Shown: positions 1-10,710 of the stretch, in pieces
Position numbering within the stretch: the first letter of the stretch is position 1
How the letters are laid out: every line of letters begins with the position of its first letter
Virus record (IMG/VR): IMGVR_UViG_2778261453_000020
Reading direction: 5' to 3' (one strand)
DNA: 10,710 nt
Source of the DNA: a virus
Lineage: Duplodnaviria; Heunggongvirae; Uroviricota; Caudoviricetes
Program-made: the position numbers and the translations under genes
The notes under the pieces: model-generated
What the model was told of the DNA's origin: nothing
The model's database searches: none
What the model saw: only the letters and a program-made list of their open reading frames with translations

Positions 1-291
1 AATGAAACACGCCAGTTCGCCCGGATGTTGGGACTTGAACCGAAGAACACGGCGGTGCGGAGTCCGGAGAGTAACGGAATAGCAGAGAGCTTCGTGAAAA
101 CGATAAAGCGTGACTACATCAGTATCATGCCCAAACCAGACGGGTTAACGGCAGCAAAGAACCTTGCAGAGGCGTTCGAGCATTATAACGAATGGCATCC
201 GCATAGTGCGCTGGGTTATCGCTCGCCACGGGAATATCTGCGGCAGCGGGCTTGTAATGGGTTAAGTGATAACAGATGTCTGGAAATATAG
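1..291 (+). CDS. insD: IS2 transposase OrfB/InsD, C-terminal fragment (5' end outside window)
   Basis: Same frame as track ORF 25-291 but open back to nt 1. Stop TAG at 289-291 lies inside the terminal inverted repeat. Sequence recognition from memory of IS3-family integrase-core C-termini. Confidence 0.7.
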
Positions 292-302
292 GGGCAAATC
301 CA
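1..302 (+). mobile_element. IS2 (IS3 family) right end, partial; the window begins inside the element
   Basis: The frame open from nt 1 translates to ...[40 protein letters not shown]...[29 protein letters not shown], which I recognise as the C-terminus of IS2 OrfB/InsD. The terminal sequence ...CAGATGTCTGGAAATATAGGGGCAAATCCA ending at 302 matches my recollection of the IS2 right inverted repeat. The exact end is from memory, not alignment. Confidence 0.7.
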
Positions 303-1910
303 AGTATCACGTATTCCTCTAAAGCCATCTCTGAAAATATGGTTATCAACAATGGCCGCGCTAATGTCTGGGCTGGCACAATGGTTAACGTGTCAGTCAG
401 AGGGAATGATGGCATTCTTGAGGTCATGAAGCCGCAAATAAATTATGCACCCGCTATGTTGGTGGGTAAGGTAGTGGTTTCTGAGGGCGCTTCTTTTAGA
501 ACGCATGGTGCCGTGGATACCAGCAAAGCGGACGTTTCGCTCGAAAATAGCGTATGGACCATCATTGCCGATATCACTACGACGAACCAAAACACCCTCC
601 TCAACTTAGCCAACCTTGCGATGTCTGACGCAAATGTGATTATGATGGATGAGCCAGTGACTCGTTCATCAGTGACGGCAAGTGCGGAAAATTTCATTAC
701 GTTGAACACCAATACCCTGTCGGGAAACGGCAATTTTTATATGCGTACCGATATGGCTAATCATCAGAGCGATCAGCTCAACGTCACCGGTCAGGCAACA
801 GGTGATTTCAAAATATTCGTGACGGACACCGGTGCCAGCCCGGCAGCAGGAGATAGCCTTACACTGGTAACAACGGGCGGCGGTGATGCTGCATTTACGT
901 TGGGCAATGCCGGAGGCGTTGTTGATATCGGTACGTATGAATATACCTTGCTGGATAATGGCAACCATAGCTGGAGTTTGGCAGAGAATCGCGCGCAAAT
1001 TACCCCTTCAACCACTGATGTGCTGAATATGGCGGCCGCACAACCGCTGGTATTTGATGCAGAACTGGACACCGTGCGTGAGCGTCTTGGTAGCGTAAAA
1101 GGCGTTAGTTACGATACGGCGATGTGGAGTTCGGCAATTAACACCCGCAACAACGTGACCACTGATGCGGGAGCTGGTTTTGAGCAAACATTGACGGGCC
1201 TGACGCTCGGTATCGATAGCCGTTTCTCCCGTGAAGAAAGCAGTACAATTCGCGGCTTGTTCTTTGGTTACTCTCATTCTGATATTGGTTTTGATCGCGG
1301 CGGAAAAGGTAATATCGATAGCTATACCCTGGGGGCTTATGCCGGTTGGGAGCATCAGAACGGTGCCTATGTTGATGGGGTGGTGAAAGTTGACCGTTTT
1401 GCCAACACCATCCATGGCAAGATGAGTAATGGGGCAACAGCGTTTGGCGATTACAATAGTAACGGCGCGGGTGCTCATGTTGAGAGCGGGTTCCGTTGGG
1501 TTGACGGATTGTGGAGTATTAGACCCTATCTGGCCTTTACCGGCTTTACCACAGATGGTCAGGACTACACGTTATCAAACGGCATGCGCGCTGATGTGGG
1601 AAATACCCGGATATTACGCGCTGAAGCGGGAACGGCGGTAAGCTATCACATGGACCTGCAAAATGGTACGACGCTGGAACCCTGGCTGAAAGCCGCCGTA
1701 CGTCAGGAATACGCCGATTCTAACCATGTGAAAGTTAATGACGATGGCAAATTTAATAATGATGTGGCTGGAACCCGTGGCGTTTATCAGGCTGGGATAA
1801 GGTCATCGTTTACCCCGACGTTAAGCGGTCATTTGTCAGTCAGCTATGGCAATGGCGCAGGGGTAGAATCGCCGTGGAATACTCAGGCGGGTGTGGTCTG
1901 GACGTTCTGA
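303..1910 (+). pseudogene. Type Va autotransporter adhesin, C-terminal passenger and beta-barrel portion; gene interrupted by IS2
   Basis: Track ORF 276-1910 has its ATG inside the IS2 end, so that start is an artefact. Translation is Gly/Thr/Asn/Ser-rich with repeated passenger-like segments and ends ...NTQAGVVWTF with a terminal aromatic residue, typical of autotransporter barrels. The 5' part of the gene must lie beyond the IS outside the window. Confidence 0.7.
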
Positions 1911-2228: not shown

Positions 2229-3155
2229 TCAGTTTTTAGCCAGAGCGGTGACGGCCTTATCTAGTTTTTGCCATCCGCAATAGGTGATTGCCCTGAACGC
2301 TGTAGCGTCATTCTGGAAAAGACTAACCGCCCCTGATTCGGTTTTTATTACCGCCTCATCAGTTGGGGTTATAACCGTGGCTTCAACGTTAATAATCAGC
2401 TTTTGAGCGTCTATCAGCATCATGCGATCCGCCTGTTCGCTCACAATTACCGGTATTCTCAAAAGCTCTATCTGCCAGAACTCAGCATCAGTAAGCTGTA
2501 AGGCGTTTTCTACGGGCAAGATTAGCGACGACGTGGCGAGCGTGTTACCGTTCGCTATGTGTTTTTTGAAAAGCTCTATAAAGTTTTCTGCTTCATCTGC
2601 ACCGTTAAGCACGCCTTCAGGTGACACGCCTTCTTCCTCCTGGTCACTGGAAAGAAATTTTTTATTAATTTCTTTCACCGATTCCGATGTGATCAAGTCT
2701 CTGATAGCTGAATTTGTACCAGGGGTGCTAAATTTGATTAGCTCGTTATTCAGCATCACAATAGCGCCGAGTTTGCACAGTTTTAGCGCACTTTCGTTAA
2801 CTTCTCCCTCTTTGACAGGGATTTCTTCGGCTTCTTTAAGCCATTTACTACCCTTGCCTGATATTGACTGCAATTTTGCGCCAAACGGAAGATTTAGCGC
2901 GCTGCTGATTAGCTTGCCTGGTACAGACTGCGAAAAAATATACTCGCCAAGCTCTCTTACTATCGGCTCTGCCACCAGCGACGGCATATTATCCGTAGTC
3001 ATTCCGGCAACAATGGATTTTTCAAGAAATTTCGATACTGCCGGATCATTTTTTTTCGTCATTTCAATTGCGTCTGCATGGCTGAATTTACACGATGTAA
3101 GCACGCTGGCGGCGCGAACTGCCGACACGCCTTTCATGTTTTTAGAAATCATCAT
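2229..3155 (-). CDS. HK97-fold major capsid protein-like (Phage_capsid family), 308 aa
   Basis: The central region KLGAIVMLNNELIKFS...SAIRDLITSESVKEINKKFLSSDQEEEGVSPEGVL and the following ...SSLILPVENALQL...IPVIVS... follow the residue pattern I recall for HK97 gp5-type capsid proteins (K.hA..h.....hL.GDG.....EGL, then ...GIVLNP...). Its ATG overlaps the stop of the preceding small ORF. Confidence 0.5.
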   Translation of the reverse strand: MMISKNMKGVSAVRAASVLTSCKFSHADAIEMTKKNDPAVSKFLEKSIVAGMTTDNMPSLVAEPIVRELGEYIFSQSVPGKLISSALNLPFGAKLQSISGKGSKWLKEAEEIPVKEGEVNESALKLCKLGAIVMLNNELIKFSTPGTNSAIRDLITSESVKEINKKFLSSDQEEEGVSPEGVLNGADEAENFIELFKKHIANGNTLATSSLILPVENALQLTDAEFWQIELLRIPVIVSEQADRMMLIDAQKLIINVEATVITPTDEAVIKTESGAVSLFQNDATAFRAITYCGWQKLDKAVTALAKN

Positions 3156-3303
3156 CTTCTTCCTCCTGGTAACATGGGGTTAGGGTTTCGTGAAAATATG
3201 GCATCAGAACAGCGGCAGCCTGTAACCGTATTTCGGTTGGCTGCTGCTTGTCGTTCATGATTTCCGTGAGTACATCAATAGGGTCTGTGATGTATTCGTT
3301 CAT
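3142..3303 (-). CDS. Small protein (53 aa) with acidic tail EEEDDDF, translationally coupled to the capsid gene
   Basis: Hand translation MNEYITDPIDVLTEIMNDKQQPTEIRLQAAAVLMPYFHETLTPCYQEEEDDDF*. GAGG sits 8-9 nt upstream of the ATG and overlaps the terS stop. The ORF ends 13 nt inside the capsid ORF in another frame. Not in the supplied track. Confidence 0.4.
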   Translation of the reverse strand: MNEYITDPIDVLTEIMNDKQQPTEIRLQAAAVLMPYFHETLTPCYQEEEDDDF

Positions 3304-3314
3304 AGTTCGCTACC

Positions 3315-3803
3315 TCAGTGTTTTAAGCCTGTTGGTGGCTTAGGGATGGGGAACCGATTTGAGGAGACATTAGCGGCATTGAGTTTTTTAACCTCTTTTT
3401 TCCCAATGCTGCCGATCTTGCGGTGGGTGAACTGGGCCAGCTTAAACGCGGCATCTAAAGCCAGTTTTGGATCTGTGTCTATGTTGTCAGCCAGTATCCT
3501 GCCCATAGCTTTGATAGGGTCGGGCAAGCCGTTGTCCATCCGTTCTATGGTGCTGATTGATGCCCGTTCCGGTGTAACTTTTTCGGTAACTTTCTTTGTA
3601 ACTTTTTTCGGTTTTGTAACCTGAAAAGTTACATCAGGAGTTACAGCCTTAAGATACTTTTTCACCTCAGGCTCGTTGGATAGCTGCCAGCCTTTAACCC
3701 TTGCGGTCTTTTCGCTGTATCCCGCATGTATAGCGGCTTCCGTGGGATTTGCGCCCCTTGATAACGCATCAGCAAACCGCTTTTTTTTGGTCGTTAATGC
3801 CAT
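3315..3803 (-). CDS. Terminase small subunit (TerS), 162 aa
   Basis: Track ORF 3315-3941, but the N-terminal 46 residues are low-complexity read-through. Start placed at MALTTKKKRFADALSRGANPTEAAIHAGYSEKTARVKGWQLSNEPEVKKYL, which matches the N-terminal helix-turn-helix pattern of TerS proteins (AGYS.KTA...G..LL..P.V..YL). GAGG lies 7 nt upstream of this ATG. Confidence 0.6.
   Translation of the reverse strand: MALTTKKKRFADALSRGANPTEAAIHAGYSEKTARVKGWQLSNEPEVKKYLKAVTPDVTFQVTKPKKVTKKVTEKVTPERASISTIERMDNGLPDPIKAMGRILADNIDTDPKLALDAAFKLAQFTHRKIGSIGKKEVKKLNAANVSSNRFPIPKPPTGLKH
3574..3644. repeat. Six GTAAC pentamers at 12-bp periodicity inside terS (four direct, two inverted)
   Basis: GTAAC at 3574, 3586, 3598 and 3616, then GTTAC at 3628 and 3640. 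On the coding strand this spans the KVT-rich linker ...VTKPKKVTKKVTEKVTPE of TerS. Confidence 0.55.
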
Positions 3804-3930
3804 GCAAAAACCTCGTTTTGAGGGGGTGTAACTTTTCGTGTAACTTTTTTGAAAAGCAAAATTTTCTACGAATGAGACGGGGGGCGGTGTCCAGGGCGAT
3901 CGCCTTTCCGGCCGGAACACTCCCCCCCTG
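3804..3930 (-). promoter_or_regulatory. Candidate packaging site (cos/pac-like): GC-rich dyad plus two GTAAC repeats immediately upstream of terS
   Basis: 3877-3929 is an extended imperfect palindrome (ACGGGGGGCGGTGT ... ACACTCCCCCCC) enclosing the perfect palindromes GGCGATCGCC (3895-3904) and CCGGCCGG (3908-3915). Two further GTAAC copies sit 12 bp apart at 3828 and 3840, between the dyad and the terS ATG. The functional assignment is inference. Confidence 0.3.
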
Positions 3931-4092
3931 TCATTGCTCACCGAGTAACGAGATCAGGCCTTCAACTTCATCGCTCAGCTTGTTTATTCGTGTCTCAAGC
4001 TCTGCGATCTTTTCCATTAATGGCGCTATCGTGTCTCTTGTTTCCTCGCCAATGGCTTTAATGATGCTTGCCTCGCGTTCTGTGATAGCCAT
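3931..4092 (-). CDS. Small predicted helical protein, 53 aa
   Basis: Hand translation MAITEREASIIKAIGEETRDTIAPLMEKIAELETRINKLSDEVEGLISLLGEQ*. AGGA lies 6 nt upstream of the ATG, and the ATG is 2 nt after the stop of the upstream ORF. Not in the supplied track. Confidence 0.4.
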   Translation of the reverse strand: MAITEREASIIKAIGEETRDTIAPLMEKIAELETRINKLSDEVEGLISLLGEQ

Positions 4093-4094
4093 TG

Positions 4095-4289
4095 TTATTC
4101 CTCACCCGTTGCAATGCCCAGGCGTTCGCGTAACAGCACGCGAGCAAGATGGCCTACTGTTGGCGTGGCGGCTCTGCCGTATATACCAGCTTCATTCATC
4201 CGGCGAATAACATCGAATTGAAGTTTTTTAAGCTCGTTTAGGATCTCGTGATCAATCATCACGGTAGCGCTTTGCTTTATCTGTTCCAC
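4095..4289 (-). CDS. Small hypothetical protein (64 aa), possible ribbon-helix-helix-like regulator
   Basis: GTG start with AGGAGG 7 nt upstream. Sequence ...SATVMIDHEILNELKKLQFDVIRRMNEAG...TVGHLARVLLRERLG reads as beta-strand plus two helices; the fold assignment is a guess. Confidence 0.45.
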   Translation of the reverse strand: MEQIKQSATVMIDHEILNELKKLQFDVIRRMNEAGIYGRAATPTVGHLARVLLRERLGIATGEE

Positions 4290-4376
4290 TTTATGACCTC
4301 CTGATATTTATCATTACATAATCGATATTTTCGATAGATATTCATCAATTAACCATATTATCAGATATGTAAGAAC

Positions 4377-4416: not shown

Positions 4417-4827
4417 TTAAAACGGAATATCATCACCGTAGGGGTCATCGCCTCCCGCTGGTGGCTGATTACCCTGTGTGCCTGTGGTTTTGCGTCTGCT
4501 CCCGCCAGGACACGCCGTCTTCGCACTGATTACGCTGTCTGCGATAACCTGCCAGCCCTGCCGTGTTTCCCCGTTCTGTTCGGTCCACTGGCTGACCTGC
4601 ATCGTGCCGGATACGCTGGCAACGTCACCCTTTTGATGTTTAGCCAGGTAGTCGGCCTGCTTACCAAATGCGATGACCGATAGCCATAACGTCGCCTGTC
4701 CATCCTGTGCCTGGCTGCATGGCAACGATACCGCCATACGCGCCAGCGTCATTGGTGTACCCTTGCTGGTCTGTTTTACCTGCGGGTCAGCCACCAGCCG
4801 TCCGTAAGCCGCTATCTGTGCTGTCAT
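4417..4827 (-). CDS. ssb: Single-stranded DNA-binding protein (SSB-like), 136 aa
   Basis: OB-fold-like N-terminus (...LWLSVIAFGKQADYLAKHQKGDVASVSGTMQVSQWTEQNGETRQGW...), Gly/Pro-rich linker and the acidic tail ...GDDPYGDDIPF characteristic of bacterial and phage SSBs. Its ATG overlaps the upstream stop as ATGA. Confidence 0.65.
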   Translation of the reverse strand: MTAQIAAYGRLVADPQVKQTSKGTPMTLARMAVSLPCSQAQDGQATLWLSVIAFGKQADYLAKHQKGDVASVSGTMQVSQWTEQNGETRQGWQVIADSVISAKTACPGGSRRKTTGTQGNQPPAGGDDPYGDDIPF

Positions 4828-5075: not shown

Positions 5076-5288
5076 TCCCCACTACTCCCCACTTTTGTTC
5101 CCCACTTTTTAAATTCCCCACTTGCTCCCCACGTCGTTTTTTTGGTGAATCTAATGCTTTGTTTTTCATTGCGTTTTTTACTCCCCACTTTTTTGGATGT
5201 ATACAGGTGGGAAAGTGGGGAATTATGTTTTTATTTTGTTAAATTCCCCACTATCCCCACTTTTATTACCCACTTTTTACAGTGGGTA
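5076..5288. repeat. Iteron-like array of octamer TCCCCACT (about 9 direct and 2-3 inverted copies); candidate replication origin
   Basis: Direct copies at 5076, 5086, 5099, 5115, 5126 (variant TCCCCACG), 5182, 5245, 5255 and 5267 (variant TACCCACT). Inverted AGTGGGGA at 5215, with degenerate inverted copies at 5205 and 5281. Spacings of 10-13 bp. An AT-rich tract at 5134-5180 separates two clusters. Confidence 0.6.
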
Positions 5289-6683
5289 AACATCATCCCC
5301 ATCGACACAAATCACGCCGTCTTTTTCCAGCTTGGACAGCCAGCGCCGGAAGTGCTTCATCTCATATCCCAGCTTTTTCATATCGTCGCGGAGAAGGGCG
5401 ATAGTGCATGGTTCTTTGTGTGCCGTCCGCGTTCTGATGCACTGCCATAGCGCCGCGTGATTCTCCGATTTGTTGCCTGCTTCCTCGATGCGCTCCAGTT
5501 CAGCAGGGGCGCGGGGAACGTCAATCACCACCATGGACACAATCTCTTCGCCATCTGTATCGGTGAACACCTCCACGCTTTTAAGGTCGTATGCACTTTC
5601 TTTTGGCTCCTCTGCGTCCTTCATCTTCGTGCATGCCGCCACCAGTGCTGTAACGTCTGAATTTTCCCGACTGATTCGGAACTCAGCATCAAGCGCCGCA
5701 CGGAATGCGCTGGAACCGCGCGCCCCTTTCGTCTCATCCTTGCCGGAATGGTGAACCACCAGCACGGTAGCCCCTGTTGCCTGCTTTATCGCGTCACATC
5801 CCTGGATAAATGCGCCCATGTCGCGGGAGTCATTTTCATCATGACCGCCAAAGCAACGGGCCAGCGTATCAATGACGATCATCCGCACCCGTTCGCCCGT
5901 TGTGCTCTGCACAAATCCGGCAGTCCTTATTACCTGTTCCACATAGTCCGGCGATGCGGGGAATACTGGCGAATTGACGATACACAAATCAGTAACCTCC
6001 TTACCGTGGGTTATTTCCCATGCCTTAACGCGGCGTTTTACGCCCATGCTGCCTTCACCAGCAACATAGATAACCGCGCCTTTACACACCCTTCGGCCTC
6101 CCCATTTCATGCCAGTAGCAACATGACACGCCCACGAAATGGCGAGGAACGATTTATAAGAACCGCTGGCTCCGTAGGTGCTGCATAATGACTCAGCCGG
6201 AATAAGCCCCTTAATTACGTAGCTTTGCTGCGCGTCGAATCCCTCAGACCCCCATGAGATGGGAAGTGTGATTTTTCGCTTTCCGCCATTCATGACCAGG
6301 CTTTCCCCACGTTCCCAGGTTTCTTTAAGCCGCGGTAGTTGCTCGCTCCAGTCCTCCAGCAATTCGAAATTTTCAGAAAGTAGCCGCGCCTCCTGGACTC
6401 CGGCGATCGCCAGTTTTGTGGCAATGGTCAGCATCTGCATATCGTCCAGATTTCCGGCACGTATGACCTTTGTCCTGTATCGTCCTTCATCAACAATCTG
6501 TAAGTTGTCCAGTTCGTTTAACTGATAACGGCCCAGGTAAACCGGAGGGATGGGATCGCCCGCTTTTTTGGCCTGCGCAATCATGTAATGTTCTGCAAAG
6601 GAGTGAGCATCATTCCCCGCGAAAATAATTGCTTCGGTGTGTTTGTCTTTCGGTAATAGTTTTACGTTCGGTGCCAGTTTCAT
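5277..6683 (-). CDS. RepA-like replicative helicase / replication initiator (RecA-fold ATPase), 468 aa
   Basis: P-loop-like YGASGSYKS, Walker-B-like RMIVIDTL, and ATVLVVHHSGKD, which is the HHxGK motif I associate with RepA/DnaB-like phage and plasmid helicases. The C-terminal approx. 70 aa look like a possible DNA-binding domain, and the gene ends inside the iteron array. Confidence 0.6.
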   Translation of the reverse strand: MKLAPNVKLLPKDKHTEAIIFAGNDAHSFAEHYMIAQAKKAGDPIPPVYLGRYQLNELDNLQIVDEGRYRTKVIRAGNLDDMQMLTIATKLAIAGVQEARLLSENFELLEDWSEQLPRLKETWERGESLVMNGGKRKITLPISWGSEGFDAQQSYVIKGLIPAESLCSTYGASGSYKSFLAISWACHVATGMKWGGRRVCKGAVIYVAGEGSMGVKRRVKAWEITHGKEVTDLCIVNSPVFPASPDYVEQVIRTAGFVQSTTGERVRMIVIDTLARCFGGHDENDSRDMGAFIQGCDAIKQATGATVLVVHHSGKDETKGARGSSAFRAALDAEFRISRENSDVTALVAACTKMKDAEEPKESAYDLKSVEVFTDTDGEEIVSMVVIDVPRAPAELERIEEAGNKSENHAALWQCIRTRTAHKEPCTIALLRDDMKKLGYEMKHFRRWLSKLEKDGVICVDGDDVYPL

Positions 6684-7215: not shown

Positions 7216-7435
7216 AAATTTTCTCCCTTATTCTTTTAATGTCCTCATTAAGGATGTCTGTAACTTTTATCAGCGAGTTTTTGGCAATTATTTTTATTGT
7301 TTTAAGTTTTCTTTTGTCGTGCTCCGACTGTGATTTTCTCTCCATAATCTCCACCATGTGGGTAACATCAACGAGCGCACGTATCAGTATTTGCATTGCT
7401 TCTTCTGCTGCGTCCGGACGGGTGTTATTGCACAT
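7205..7435 (-). CDS. Hypothetical protein, 76 aa
   Basis: Track ORF 7205-7465, trimmed to the ATG at 7435 (AGGGGG 6 nt upstream) because the longer form would overlap the Icd-like gene by 40 nt. The C-terminal half is encoded in an AT-rich stretch (about 7205-7330). Confidence 0.4.
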   Translation of the reverse strand: MCNNTRPDAAEEAMQILIRALVDVTHMVEIMERKSQSEHDKRKLKTIKIIAKNSLIKVTDILNEDIKRIREKICDA

Positions 7436-7598
7436 GGCACACCCCCTGACGAATACGGGCGACAAAAATCAGATGTGCGTGCGGCAGCTGCGCACGGGCT
7501 TCGCGCTCAGTGGCAGCGGTAACGGTGAAAATATCAATGTTGCTGTGGTGGCACTGCATAAAGCGCCAGACAAAGTAAGGGCGTGCGGATACAGCCAT
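7425..7598 (-). CDS. Icd-like (host cell-division inhibitor family) small protein, 57 aa
   Basis: MAVSARPYFVWRFMQCHHSNIDIFTVTAATEREARAQLPHAHLIFVARIRQGVCHVQ*, with GGGAG 8 nt upstream of the ATG. Paralogous to the 7885-8082 ORF (shared FVWRF, TEREAR, ARIRQG). The Icd-like assignment is from memory of P1/P4-type family patterns. Confidence 0.5.
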   Translation of the reverse strand: MAVSARPYFVWRFMQCHHSNIDIFTVTAATEREARAQLPHAHLIFVARIRQGVCHVQ

Positions 7599-7762
7599 GT
7601 GAAAGGCTCCCAGATGAATTATAAGGAGTCTCGCTACTACGCTGCTAAACGGGGTGGCGAGACGTAACAGGGTTAGCAGACTGGTCATCTGGAAACCAGC
7701 GAGCGCAAAGGCTCCCCCGTTACGCCCCGCCATAATGCGGGTATGGGTAGGTTTACGGACAC

Positions 7763-7884
7763 AAAAAAACCGCTTATCGGATGTGGGCGGCTGTCCGCCA
7801 GATGTATTCAGGCTGCTAAACCCGGTCGCCATGTGGGCGACGGGGGAAGCATACAGCCCCGTGATAATTTTTTGCAAGCGGTTT
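7763..7884 (-). ncRNA. Candidate structured RNA (multi-stem, cloverleaf-like) ending in a U7 tract, between the two Icd-like genes
   Basis: On the minus strand, AAAAACCGCUU (7884-7874) can pair with AAGCGGUUUUU (7775-7765). This encloses hairpins GGGG/CCCC, GUCGCC-CACAU-GGCGAC and GGCGG-ACAG-CCGCC. Folds were judged by eye only. Confidence 0.25.
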
Positions 7885-8082
7885 TTACGCATGATGTGAC
7901 CCCTGACGAATACGGGCGGCGAATACAGCAACACAACCTGACGGGCAACGGTTACGCGCTTCGCGTTCCGTCCAGGCGGTTACGTGGATGATTTGAGATT
8001 CTCCGGCACTCAGGGCCAGAAAACGCCACACAAAGGCCGTTTGTGTGTGTACAAGGTGTGGTATATGATTTACGGCAACCAT
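7885..8082 (-). CDS. Icd-like small protein, 65 aa
   Basis: MVAVNHIPHLVHTQTAFVWRFLALSAGESQIIHVTAWTEREARNRCPSGCVAVFAARIRQGSHHA*, with AGGAG 5 nt upstream of the ATG. The track shows this as the 3' end of a 288-aa ORF, which I reject. Confidence 0.5.
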   Translation of the reverse strand: MVAVNHIPHLVHTQTAFVWRFLALSAGESQIIHVTAWTEREARNRCPSGCVAVFAARIRQGSHHA

Positions 8083-8170
8083 AACGGCTCCTAGTTTACG
8101 TTGTTGGTTAGACGCCCCGTATGTGTTCCCAGCACTGCGGGGCGTTGATTTTTGTGTAATGGCAAGTACA

Positions 8171-8219
8171 ATGGTAATTACCATGTAGGTATAGTAATGA
8201 AGGGTAATTACCATGTCAA
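8171..8219 (-). promoter_or_regulatory. Sigma70-like promoter (TTGACA-17-TACTAT) for the icd/replication operon with two palindromic operators
   Basis: Minus-strand -35 TTGACA (8219-8214), 17-nt spacer, -10 TACTAT (8196-8191). Perfect palindrome GGTAATTACC at 8203-8212 sits in the spacer. ATGGTAATTACCAT at 8171-8184 sits at about +1 to +14. Confidence 0.5.
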
Positions 8220-8386
8220 CACCATTAGAAAAACGTTCGCCTCCATACCAAATGCGATTACCGGAAGACTTCAGAGCGCAGCTAGAAGAAGCAGCTAAGG
8301 CCGATGGCGACACATCTTTAGCCACTTGGATTAAACGCGTTCTCCGCAAAGAATTACAGCAACGCGGCATAGAACCCAAAGGATAA
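8213..8386 (+). CDS. Ribbon-helix-helix (Arc/MetJ-like) DNA-binding protein, 57 aa; candidate repressor
   Basis: Hand translation MSTPLEKRSPPYQMRLPEDFRAQLEEAAKADGDTSLATWIKRVLRKELQQRGIEPKG*. YQMRLPEDFRAQLEEAAKADG...SLATWIKRVL fits the beta-strand/helix/helix pattern of Arc-type repressors. It is divergent from the operator-bearing promoter. Not in the supplied track; its own promoter was not identified. Confidence 0.55.
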   Translation: MSTPLEKRSPPYQMRLPEDFRAQLEEAAKADGDTSLATWIKRVLRKELQQRGIEPKG

Positions 8387-8443
8387 AAACTATCAGCGCC
8401 GTGGTGTGAGGTATTACGGCGCATTGCTATGCAGGACAACACA

Positions 8444-8617
8444 ATGACCGATAAAGAATTGACCAAAACATTATCACCGGCACGGAAAAGACGGCGCAGA
8501 AAGATAGAGCATGAATCAGAAAGATTCGCGCCATGTGCTTTTGCCCTTGAGCAATTCCTTAAAGAGTATAGGGAAAAGCGCTCATTGCAGGTATGGCAAC
8601 GAACTGAACCAGACTGA
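8444..8617 (+). CDS. Possible small basic protein with arginine-rich motif, 57 aa
   Basis: In-frame part of track ORF 8429-8617; AGGA lies 7 nt upstream of the ATG at 8444. Contains ARKRRRRK. It sits between the RHH gene and the terminator at 8712-8739. Coding status is uncertain. Confidence 0.25.
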   Translation: MTDKELTKTLSPARKRRRRKIEHESERFAPCAFALEQFLKEYREKRSLQVWQRTEPD

Positions 8618-8711
8618 TTGCATTGCCCACCAGCCTGATAGCGGCTATCATCCCCGTGCTTATTTTTGGGATCACATACACATAAGGCGCAGCGGGTTAA
8701 TTGTTCAGAAA

Positions 8712-8739
8712 GGCGGCTCCATATCGGGGCCGCTTTTTT
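8712..8739 (+). terminator. Rho-independent terminator
   Basis: GCGGCUCC-AUAUC-GGGGCCGC (8-bp stem with one G-U pair) followed by U6 at 8734-8739. The reverse-strand hairpin has a mismatch and a poor U-tract. Confidence 0.65.
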
Positions 8740-8765
8740 CGTGTTTGTCATATCTGTGATACCCG

Positions 8766-8972
8766 TTAAGCAGCCGTTCCGCGTGCTTCCTGTTCGCGTT
8801 CTTTCTGCCAGGCCAACACATCATCCTCATACCATCCGCGACGGCGTAAACCAACGCGAAAACCCTGCGGAAATTCTCCGGCGTTGATCATGCTTTGCAG
8901 CGTGCTGTCTGCCTTGATGTGGATAATTTTTTTTACTTCCTGGCGAAAGATAATTTTTCTGATTGCTTCCAT
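8766..8972 (-). CDS. alpA: AlpA-family (phage Vis/AlpA-type) DNA-binding regulator, 68 aa
   Basis: ...KIIHIKADSTLQSMINAGEFPQGFRVGLRRRGWYEDDVLAWQKERE... matches the AlpA helix-turn-helix pattern. It lies next to a P4-type integrase, as is usual for such islands. Confidence 0.7.
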   Translation of the reverse strand: MEAIRKIIFRQEVKKIIHIKADSTLQSMINAGEFPQGFRVGLRRRGWYEDDVLAWQKEREQEARGTAA

Positions 8973-9468: not shown

Positions 9469-10710
9469 CTACACGGCTCGGATACCCCTTTTACCACTGG
9501 CGAGGGTTACGCCCGTCGCCGCAGCCTCGACAAATTCGCCCCACCAGCGCATCAGCACGATGCGTTTTTCTATGTAGTTGCTCCGGTTGTATGCCCGTCT
9601 AACTTCGTTGGTGTCGACGTGGGCAAGTGCCGCCTCTATTACGTCCGGCTCGAATCCTTCCTCGTTCGCTGCTGTGCTGAATATGGCGCGTAATCCATGA
9701 GACACCAGCACGCCAGCAAATCCCATACGCCGCAATGCTGCGTTAGCTGTCTGGCTGTTCATCGGCTGCTGTGGGTCTTTCAGGCTTGGGAAAACGTAAT
9801 TGCGGTGGTGGCTGATTGGTTTCATGGCCTCCAGCACCGCCATAGCCTGACCGGAAAGCGGGATAACGTGATCCCTGCGCATCTTCATGCGTCCGGCAGG
9901 TATCGTCCATTGCTTCGCGTCCAGGTTGATTTCATCCCACCGCGTTGATGACGCTTCGGCGGGACGGGTTACGGTCAGTAACTGCCATTCAATCAGTAAT
10001 CTGGTCTGCCGTTCTGTTGCCGATACTGATAAAGCCTGCATAAGCTCCGGCAGCTGTTCGGGGCGGATTGTTGGCATATGTTTTTTTACAGGTGAGGGAA
10101 ACGCCTTACGCACATTCATAGCCGGATTGGCATCAATCAGCCCACTGTTGGCGGCGTAATCCATTACCTCATTAACGCGCTGTAAAACCCGCTTGAGTGT
10201 TTCCAGGTTGCCGCGCTCCTTGATGGGTGTAAGCACCTCAACGAATCTTCGGGCGGTGAGGGTATCTATTGGCGTGTTGCCGATGAACGGGAATACATAT
10301 TTATCCAGCGAACGCCAGATGTCTTTAATCGTGTTGGGGGCCAGATTCTGGCTGATTTTCACCTGGTACCATGCCGCCGCCACATTTTCGAACGTGTTCC
10401 CTTGTCTTCGGGCCTCTGTCTCTCTTTTTTGCCTCTCGTGGTCCTGCGGGTCAGTTCCGGCACGAATTAACGCCCTGTACTCGCTACGGCGTTTTCTGGC
10501 ATCAGCCAGGGAAACATCTTCAAGCGATCCAAAACTCAGCAATATTCTTTTTTTGTCCGATGGTCGGTAGTAGGAAAATCTCCAGAGTTTTGATCCAGAC
10601 GGTTTGACCAGGAGAAAAAGCCCTCCGCCGTCCTGCAGGGTGTACTCCTTTTGCGCTGGTCTGGCTGCTTTGATCTGCACTGTGGTTAATGGGTGTGTTT
10701 TTCTCGCCAT
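9469..10710 (-). CDS. P4-type tyrosine integrase, 413 aa
   Basis: N-terminal ...GLFLLVKPSGSKLWRFSYYRP... arm-binding-like domain. Catalytic-core motifs: R in ...TVTRPAEAS..., HGLRAIF (H-x-x-R), and ...ALAHVDTNEVRRAYNRSNYIEKR with the likely catalytic Tyr. The ATG is the final base of the window, so the promoter and attachment site are outside it. Confidence 0.85.
   Translation of the reverse strand: MARKTHPLTTVQIKAARPAQKEYTLQDGGGLFLLVKPSGSKLWRFSYYRPSDKKRILLSFGSLEDVSLADARKRRSEYRALIRAGTDPQDHERQKRETEARRQGNTFENVAAAWYQVKISQNLAPNTIKDIWRSLDKYVFPFIGNTPIDTLTARRFVEVLTPIKERGNLETLKRVLQRVNEVMDYAANSGLIDANPAMNVRKAFPSPVKKHMPTIRPEQLPELMQALSVSATERQTRLLIEWQLLTVTRPAEASSTRWDEINLDAKQWTIPAGRMKMRRDHVIPLSGQAMAVLEAMKPISHHRNYVFPSLKDPQQPMNSQTANAALRRMGFAGVLVSHGLRAIFSTAANEEGFEPDVIEAALAHVDTNEVRRAYNRSNYIEKRIVLMRWWGEFVEAAATGVTLASGKRGIRAV

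Follow-up and report, generated by a model that had tools for sequence, protein, structure and literature searches.

Introduction

How ring-shaped small terminase subunits (TerS) select DNA is still unsettled. In phage lambda, packaging specificity is attributed to the cosB repeats and to their reading by the helix-turn-helix of TerS (PMC6739421, PMC6092414). The recognition region of phages SPP1 and SF6 contains direct repeats that overlap the ribosome-binding site and the terS coding sequence (PMC6316719, PMC4737164), and the SPP1 TerS, G1P, binds a pac site that overlaps the promoter, ribosome-binding site and beginning of the G1P gene itself (PMC6316719). The isolated DNA-binding domain of the SF6/SPP1 protein shows almost no sequence preference (PMC4737164). 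The TerS of HK97 has no helix-turn-helix, and its one 15-bp site is read as DNA leaves the central TerS tunnel (PMC11331095). Among satellites, phage-inducible chromosomal islands (PICIs) of the Rpp type (EcCICFT073-type) keep a helper-like cosN and have their own cosB (PMC6739421, PMC6092414). Homologues of terS occur in some Gram-negative PICIs, and a capsid gene in most (PMC6092414; 10.1101/2022.07.18.500453); for the islands noted to have terS homologues (PMC6092414), we found no characterisation of a site in the literature. Here we describe an array of short GTTAC repeats that lies inside and just upstream of the terS gene of such a satellite, in a 10,710-nt stretch of viral DNA (IMG/VR virus record IMGVR_UViG_2778261453_000020; the whole stretch is hereafter called the window).

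Literature searches returned no published description of these sites. From their sequence context we think it probable that the repeats are cosB-like recognition sites for the satellite's own TerS, a protein of the SF6 G1P type, and that they would give the satellite a private packaging specificity.

Sites inside and upstream of terS

The terS gene of the satellite runs on the minus strand from an ATG at 3803 to a stop at 3315 and encodes 162 amino acids; the same 489-bp gene is annotated by NCBI's PGAP pipeline in a related Escherichia coli genome, L001 (related loci are given by such numbers throughout). An earlier reading of the window without database searches (the sequence-only reading) had pointed to four direct and two inverted copies of GTAAC at 3574-3644, with a 12-bp periodicity, in the part of terS that encodes the protein's linker, and to a recurrence of the pentamer in the non-coding DNA upstream. 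Positions and counts proved exact. GTAAC starts at 3574, 3586, 3598 and 3616 on the plus strand and at 3628 and 3640 on the minus strand, the spacing among the six intragenic pentamers being 12, 12, 18, 12 and 12 bp, and further GTAAC/GTTAC copies lie at 3828 and 3840, before terS. Tandem Repeats Finder calls a period of 12 in both places (3574-3612 and 3826-3848), and the disordered linker in the AlphaFold2 model of TerS (residues 55-95) covers most of the repeat region.

All six intragenic pentamers (GTWAC) encode Val-Thr pairs, at residues 54/55, 58/59, 62/63, 68/69, 72/73 and 76/77, and the peptide over residues 54-77 reads ...AVTPDVTFQVTKPKKVTKKVTEKVTPE... with its six Val-Thr dipeptides. 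In gene sense, the four direct copies are GTT-ACN and the two inverted copies GTA-ACT; both of the latter are complete AGTTACA 7-mers on the opposite strand. The full motif is longer than the pentamer, AAAGTTACA(C), and its copies are spaced mostly 12 bp apart. The intragenic array (3573..3645, both strands) comprises six (A/G)GTTAC(A/C) copies: AGTTACA on the plus strand at 3639-3645 and 3627-3633 and, on the minus strand, GGTTACA at 3615-3621, AGTTACA at 3597-3603, AGTTACC at 3585-3591 and AGTTACA at 3573-3579. The non-coding pair (3827..3845, minus strand) consists of AGTTACA at 3839-3845 and 3827-3833, 12 bp apart and 41 and 29 bp 5′ of the terS ATG. The copies of the window thus stand at -41, at -29 and from +159 to +225 relative to the ATG, and an A3-6 tract precedes each site.

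The pentamer alone is a weak statistic, with 34 copies of GTAAC in the window against 15.9 expected, an excess of about twofold. The extended motifs AAGTTAC and AGTTACA are each observed seven times in the window, against 1.0 and 0.9 expected respectively, and none of 200 shuffles matched either count; six of the seven copies are confined to 3573-3846. An unbiased k-mer count gave AAAGTTAC six times in a 390-bp zone and once in the other 10.3 kb. Moreover, the 11-mer GTGTAACTTTT is identical at 3572-3582, within the gene, and at 3826-3836 and 3838-3848, the two upstream sites. The seventh AGTTACA (7259-7265, minus strand) falls within another open reading frame (ORF; …LIKVTDIL…) and is compatible with chance, about 0.9 being expected.

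Conservation of the repeats in relatives

Relatives, from 96% down to about 35% identity, were collected by protein searches, which gave roughly 366 homologues, and DNA of relatives was obtained by exact-protein look-up and from IMG/VR. A pattern scan of one genome per species found no relatives, and a wider scan of IMG/VR gave for the most part TerS of the O157 type, or very distant ones, in which the match is confined to the DNA-binding domain. Six loci, at 52-65% protein identity, are of the GTTAC type: the window, L015, L018 and L019, which are satellite-like, L013, a Hafnia prophage, and L020, which is phage-like. All six have AAAGTTACAC in non-coding DNA 29-41 bp before the ATG and three to six linker copies at +156 to +228. 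An equivalent copy, GTTAC or GTTAAC, occurs 29-41 bp before the ATG in 11 of the 12 loci with upstream sequence. The variant ATTAAC occupies this position in L025, with GTTAAC copies further upstream; the copies of L017 are also placed further upstream of the ATG than 29-41 bp, and L015 has six non-coding GTTAC copies and one GTTAAC upstream of its gene.

We ran the comparison of synonymous sites that the sequence-only reading had proposed, and the codons within the pentamers turned out to be frozen in these homologues. At columns with an invariant amino acid, codon identity (mean pairwise, over the six GTTAC-type genes) is 0.92 in the motif (n=7) versus 0.49 elsewhere (n=46; Mann-Whitney p=8e-4). 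Linker valines use GTT or GTA in 25/25 cases, versus 14/23 for other valines (Fisher p=5e-4), and 13 of the 15 direct copies in the six genes read AAA-GTT-ACA. In nine of ten inverted copies T is the third base of the codon that precedes GTA, though this codon encodes Ala, Asp, Ser, Gly, Leu or Arg, and the T completes AGTTACA on the opposite strand. Nine distinct close relatives show no change at any of 56 motif positions, versus 48 variable positions out of 631 overall. The motif DNA is therefore under purifying selection, and no homologue was seen to keep the KVT peptide with other codons and without a GTAAC periodicity. The 12-bp spacing also occurs in the non-coding arrays of the window, L015, L028 and L029, and so is not a codon artefact.

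In more distant relatives the linker repeats Val-Asn, with codons GTT-AAC, instead of Val-Thr, and GTTAAC(C) is the motif type of eight other loci. It is found at the equivalent non-coding upstream position in L023, L024, L026 and L029. Some copies stand in another reading frame and encode Leu-Thr: AGG-TTA-ACT in L023, GCG-TTA-ACC in L015 and ATG-TTA-ACA in L027. Two loci have no copies in the linker: in L028 a pair of GTTAACC copies, 12 bp apart, lies upstream, and the O157-type prophage L017 has five copies of ATGTTAAC in a 290-bp non-coding spacer; the linkers of these two loci, that of L017 being long, are unrelated in sequence and all their copies are non-coding. Across 14 loci, each locus has its own motif at 6-25 per kb in the zone from core to linker (the core is described below) versus 0-2.5 per kb elsewhere, the GTTAC and GTTAAC types are almost mutually exclusive, and an unbiased 6-mer count recovered the same motifs. 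At the start of helix 2, TerS residue 20 shows Pro or Ser in 6/6 GTTAC loci and Gln or Lys in 7/7 aligned GTTAAC loci. A third repeat, AATGATA/TATCATT, is present in L041 (33% identity) in six to eight copies, mostly as inverted pairs; the copies occupy the HNH side of the core, about 60-230 bp before terS, with none between core and terS. As a separate observation, site number in the linker can differ even between genes that are almost identical: relative to L024, the linker of L026 is expanded by 36 residues, and the expansion contains about a dozen VN, IN or LN units, of which many are degenerate (GTTAAT, ATTAAC).

Because synonymous sites are frozen, copies occur in non-coding DNA and in other reading frames, and motif and peptide switch in concert, the peptide repeat follows the DNA. 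The codons, the upstream copies and the concerted switch from GTTAC/Val-Thr to GTTAAC/Val-Asn likewise support the DNA-level function that the sequence-only reading had favoured, and we are confident that the repeats are conserved as DNA and act as DNA.

The cos-like core and the TerS protein

Upstream of the sites is a conserved cos-like core (3862..3928, minus strand) consisting of a G7 run, about 35 nt and then CTGGACACCGCCCCCCGTCTCATTCGTAGAAAA, with dyad symmetry; it begins 3 nt past the stop of a 53-residue ORF upstream of it. In all relatives read, the core has a G7-9 run followed, after about 35-45 nt, by ...ACACCGCGCCCCCTCTCA..CAGAGAAAAAA; it aligns across seven loci, and the G-run and the C-run are kept in all relatives. 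In most loci read, the first repeat follows it downstream at a distance of between about 17 bp in the window and about 50 bp in L029. In many O157 and other Shiga-toxin-producing genomes, DNA about 80% identical to the window core sits between the HNH endonuclease gene and terS-terL-capsid, terL encoding the large terminase subunit (TerL). The core is also present in the Shiga toxin (Stx) phages BP-4795, 1717, 2851 and YYZ-2008, and genomes have a median of two core-containing places. The window core is nearest to the Stx-phage core (80%), versus 49-68% for the other GTTAC loci. The phage record MT225100 starts within the core (...GCCCCCCCT|CTCACGCAGAG), between ...CCCCCCCT and CTCAC....

An HNH gene, an HK97-type TerL, a portal and a protease-capsid fusion make up a cos-phage packaging module. 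The presence of these genes around the core in relatives suggests cos packaging (for the context of HNH-cos modules, see PMC11331095). We treat the core as a probable, putative cleavage region because of this HNH/cos-module context and because MT225100 starts inside it. The dyad of the core (3862-3935) pairs AATGACAGGGGGGG with CCCCCCGTCTCATT over 14 nt at 86% complementarity, and there is a second pair of 20 nt.

TerS itself can be divided into a DNA-binding domain (residues 1-54; 3642-3803), a disordered linker (residues 55-95; 3519-3641) and a C-terminal helical domain (residues 96-162; 3318-3518), all encoded on the minus strand. Pfam Terminase_2 (PF03592) matches residues 3-53 only (E=1.4e-10), over positions 1-51 of the 141 in the model, leaving the C-terminal half unmatched, and PHROG 641, "terminase small subunit", matches the protein over its full length (E=6.6e-43). 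The AlphaFold2 model, built from 26 homologues, has a confident four-helix N-terminal domain at residues 5-54, no secondary structure at residues 55-95, where the mean predicted local distance difference test (pLDDT) score of 10-residue blocks is 45-61 over residues 61-90, and three C-terminal helices at residues 96-148. Foldseek superimposes the N-terminal domain on SF6 G1P (4zc3) with a template modelling (TM) score of 0.86, a root-mean-square deviation (rmsd) of 1.9 Å and 30% identity, and a profile search of the PDB matched 3zqp, 4zc3 and 2cmp with E of about 2e-3. The N-terminal domain is a homologue of the helix-turn-helix DNA-binding domain of SF6 G1P. Against the full-length structure 3zqq the rmsd is 17 Å, and a G1P-type oligomerisation domain with a C-terminal barrel was not found. 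The linker is hypervariable in length and sequence across the family. The C-terminal domain is 61% identical to that of the O157-type prophage TerS and the DNA-binding domain only 56%, the latter grouping with the GTTAC-type proteins.

A 53-residue ORF (3142..3303, minus strand; MNEYITDPIDVLTEIMNDKQQPTEIRLQAAAVLMPYFHETLTPCYQEEEDDDF) lies directly after terS. Its product is similar to the C-terminal helical segment of TerS, lacks the DNA-binding domain, has an acidic tail at its end and matches PHROG 641 at positions 88-126 (E=7e-7); a small ORF is found at the same position in two satellites, L019 and L023, and in L020, a phage-like locus. The 53-residue protein could be a partner of TerS or a decoy that interferes with packaging. 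Programmed frameshifting on CCG-AAA-AAA-G was considered and rejected, as the A AAA AAG heptamer is off the register of the reading frame and the A-run is absent in relatives.

A candidate recognition array for TerS

The sites flank and enter terS and follow the probable cleavage core, a placement that bears on TerS as their reader. Satellites such as the window (GTTAC) and L023 (GTTAAC) keep a matching motif and TerS without HNH or terL, which makes it probable that the satellite encodes the reader itself; the DNA-binding protein next to the sites is TerS. From this context and from the covariation of motif and protein, we infer that TerS binds the sites. Phages of the helper type carry another repeat, ATGTTAAC, at the equivalent place, which suggests that the satellite has a recognition code of its own. 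Moreover, the window is a mosaic of an Stx-like core and C-terminal domain with a GTTAC-type DNA-binding domain, as would be expected if the TerL of a helper were engaged while a private code was read. The likely helpers, going by these similarities, are Stx-type prophages.

If the repeats are cosB-like sites for TerS, the array would have two parts, an intragenic half and a half in the non-coding leader between the cos-like core and the start of terS. The helix-turn-helix domains of a TerS oligomer, each on about 40 disordered residues, would dock one to a site; on TerS rings, adjacent helix-turn-helix motifs are about one DNA turn apart (PMC4737164). The C-terminal domain would recruit the helper's TerL and HNH nuclease, these enzymes would cut at the adjacent core, and packaging would then start on satellite DNA. 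Since the sites extend into terS, the Val-Thr repeat would be imposed on the flexible linker, as a by-product of in-frame sites within a stretch of protein that tolerates almost any sequence.

Several points weigh against this interpretation. The isolated SF6 G1P domain bound pac weakly and had no preference for the box repeats (PMC4737164), so that a protein of this fold need not dock in a sequence-specific way. The association with residue 20 was drawn from 13 sequences, whose phylogeny confounds it. The sole hint as to the position of cleavage is the one phage record, MT225100, that starts in the core. The layout of L041 means that the arrangement of the repeats is not universal, and a GTTAC-type helper in E. 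coli would weaken the idea of a private code. Lastly, the inverted and direct copies can form a stable RNA hairpin (-23.8 kcal/mol, z=-3.1).

A broader proposal, which we offer tentatively and regard as somewhat doubtful, is that HNH-cos phages and their satellites may share a portable code of 7-9-bp sites, 12 bp apart, read one-to-one by tethered SF6-type helix-turn-helix domains. The code would switch by a one-base change (GTTAC to GTTAAC), possibly together with a change from Pro/Ser20 to Gln/Lys20, and satellites would join a private TerS and array to a cleavage core that they have copied from a helper present locally. As arrays drift in and out of the linker-coding region, such a DNA code would also write VT or VN repeats.

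Other functions for the repeats have to be weighed. They may be operators through which TerS, or a regulator of the island or helper, controls expression of terS and of the capsid-like gene that follows it, in the manner of self-repression by SPP1 G1P; by the title of a 1997 paper by Chai et al., the SPP1 terminase is said both to initiate packaging and to repress its own synthesis. The upstream copies, 29-41 bp before the ATG and beside the ribosome-binding site, are suitably placed for this, and the inverted pairs look like operators of dimeric helix-turn-helix proteins. However, neither a sigma-70-like promoter nor a convincing terminator at the sites emerged from a scan of 3300-4320, 4-12 copies that extend 230 bp into the gene would be superfluous for an operator, and the fixed place just downstream of the cos-like core, in phages as in satellites, points to packaging. 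We think a purely regulatory role unlikely, the two roles being mutually compatible. It is quite unlikely, too, that the sites serve a host nucleoid protein or are intrinsically bent DNA, in which phased A-tracts with GTTAC shape cos for the terminase. The A3-6 tract before each site would suit such a role, as would the proposal that SF6/SPP1 recognition works through bendable DNA and not through reading of the box repeats (PMC4737164), and the finding that HK97 TerS reads an A-tract partly through its shape (PMC11331095). A host factor or simple bending leaves unexplained both the switch between GTTAC and GTTAAC in step with TerS lineage and residue 20 and the invariance at synonymous sites of GTTACA, which lies outside the A-tract; moreover, a spacing of 12 bp is out of helical phase, and the A-tracts would thus add up to no planar bend.

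The hairpin mentioned above raises the possibility that the element acts in the late mRNA, on its translation, stability or processing. This hairpin is a nested fold of the minus-strand RNA of 3560-3660, made up of the motif copies and well below the shuffle mean of -14.8 kcal/mol, and the self-complementary GTTAAC means that the relatives could pair too. Nevertheless, upstream copies that are single or in direct tandem, the purely direct arrays of L025 and the lack of intragenic copies in L017 and L028 defy any one fold. The loops between the arms vary from 9 to 21 nt, there is no covariation specific to pairs, the motif being replaced wholesale, and an Rfam scan at E<=1 gave no match at 3300-3960. 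This makes an RNA function very unlikely. Least probable of all is that the DNA periodicity is a by-product of a (K)VT peptide repeat that arose by slippage and was kept for a role in the linker. Slippage clearly changes the number of KKVT units, as close E. coli relatives have one (P0003) or two (P0004) fewer, and K-V-T was almost invariant in our first protein alignment. A peptide-only origin is nonetheless largely refuted: synonymous positions are frozen, identical motifs stand in non-coding DNA, off-frame copies are kept as Leu-Thr, inverted copies fix the third base of the preceding codon in spite of amino-acid change, and the linker is otherwise hypervariable and predicted to be disordered.

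Recognition of the array by TerS, the explanation that we prefer, would make this family of loci a natural test case, with a sharp motif, a fixed 12-bp spacing, a variable copy number, two motif types and one candidate specificity residue. A model in which DNA wraps around TerS with one domain per site becomes directly testable. The finding also suggests a packaging route for satellites that are widespread in E. coli and Salmonella and, with Stx-type prophages as likely helpers, has a bearing on the mobility of virulence islands. Moreover, it offers a clear example of an array of DNA-binding sites that dictates a peptide repeat, and a caution for the interpretation of low-complexity repeats in proteins.

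The surrounding island

The window contains a PICI-like phage satellite of about 9 kb at tRNA-Pro, with the layout of Gram-negative PICIs and all island genes on the minus strand. It has an integrase at one end (9469-10710) and an ORF for an excisionase/AlpA-like regulator (8766-8972). Two ORFs (7885-8751 and 7425-7934), which flank the C4 RNA module described below and whose C-termini match families of phage transcriptional repressors, have counterparts in L001 that are annotated as Icd-like. Next come a RepA-type helicase (5277-6683) and a single-stranded DNA-binding protein (SSB; 4417-4827), and the late part has the order SSB, two small ORFs, terS, the 53-residue ORF and the capsid-like gene. 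No lysis, tail, portal, terL or HNH genes are present in the island.

A P1-type C4 antisense RNA and its targets were identified with Rfam at 7650-7854 (minus strand), giving this satellite an immunity module of the P1/P7 type. The C4 RNA scores 71.6 bits (E=9.5e-13), its a1/b1 targets score 45.5 bits, slightly below the gathering score, and a weak isrK-like match overlaps. The only Rfam matches in the window at E<=1 are this module, at about 7650-7854, and a weak one to BSnc120 (21.9 bits, E=0.38) at 1955-2028.

The capsid-like gene (2229..3155; 308 amino acids; Pfam Phage_capsid, E=9e-7; PHROG major head protein) closes the late module of the satellite. Its product matches only the C-terminal part of major head proteins of the HK97 fold, and phages of the helper type encode a protease-capsid fusion of about 645 amino acids. 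By analogy with Ccm of SaPIbov5, a Staphylococcus aureus pathogenicity island (SaPI), the gene might redirect capsid size.

In L001 the same island, about 9 kb long, lies between tRNA-Pro/yejM and yejO, and in the window yejO is interrupted by IS2. The IS2 end (1-303) abuts an ORF of 544 amino acids of the pertactin/autotransporter type (276-1910, plus strand), which is a fragment of yejO. Positions 719-867 of the window are 100% identical to the first 149 bases of "Escherichia virus Mu_3F6", which in that record is probably flanking host DNA. Compared with phage records by megablast, the whole window matched only at the IS2 end and a short host flank, neither informative for terS. Of 5,426 complete E. 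coli genomes, about 220 carry the terS region at >=95% identity, and many of them are Shiga-toxin-producing. In L018, from Salmonella, a satellite of the window type is directly followed by protease-capsid and portal genes, and in L019 such a satellite is followed by a truncated TerL with the nuclease domain only. Satellites directly followed by phage late genes are the arrangement of "helper-embedded satellites" (10.1101/2022.07.18.500453).

Comparison with known packaging systems

The sequence-only reading had likened the repeats to the pac site of phage P1. The analogy holds in so far as both consist of short repeats within the gene of a terminase subunit; for P1 pac, with its hexamers in pacA, this is reportedly the description given by Sternberg and Coulby in 1987. 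The P1 hexamers, TGATCA/G, contain Dam methylation sites and flank the cut. The motif described here has no GATC and no such hexamers, the TerS is Terminase_2-like and not a PacA, and the packaging mode differs; we rejected the P1 analogy on motif content. Given the HNH-terS-terL context of HK97-type cos phages and an array downstream of the core, lambda cosB or SPP1 pacL/pacR is the better comparison.

HK97 is likewise a cos phage with an HNH protein, and its TerS site, which includes an A-tract, is a few tens of bp downstream of the cut (PMC11331095). Unlike HK97, the loci studied here have 4-12 repeated sites and a helix-turn-helix domain of the SF6 type. The TerS of SaPIs (pac) and the Rpp PICIs (cos) are comparable in that a satellite protein and a satellite-specific sequence redirect the helper's terminase. 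SaPI TerS, however, serves headful packaging, and Rpp is not a TerS but forms a heterodimer with that of the helper; in the window, by contrast, the cos-like core goes with a complete homologue of TerS. Redirection of the Rpp type was set aside for the window because a full TerS homologue is present and its fold differs from the MerR-like winged helix of Rpp (PMC6739421).

With the pac of SPP1/SF6 (pacL-pacC-pacR, boxes a, b and c, read by G1P), the window shares the Pfam family and fold of the DNA-binding domain, as well as direct repeats that overlap the start region and coding sequence of terS. The C-terminal half of the window TerS, unlike G1P, has no Terminase_2 match. In SPP1, which uses headful packaging, pac overlaps the stretch of terS coding for the DNA-binding domain, whereas here the module is of the HNH/HK97 cos type and the sites overlap the linker-coding part. 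Moreover, conservation of the SPP1/SF6 boxes is poor, and the isolated domain does not favour them (PMC4737164); the motif described here, by contrast, is sharply conserved.

Lambda cosB (R3, R2 and R1, bound by gpNu1) is similar in having several short repeats on the terS side of the cleavage region, which in the window is the putative one. It lies wholly upstream of Nu1 and includes a site for integration host factor (IHF), whereas half of the sites in the window are inside coding sequence, and motif and 12-bp spacing differ. An IHF-like consensus was not seen by eye in 3804-3862, no formal scan having been run. Nu1 has a winged-helix domain of another family, in contrast to the SF6 G1P-type domain of the window TerS. 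By analogy, the array appears to work like lambda cosB or SPP1 pacL/pacR, and it is a member of neither.

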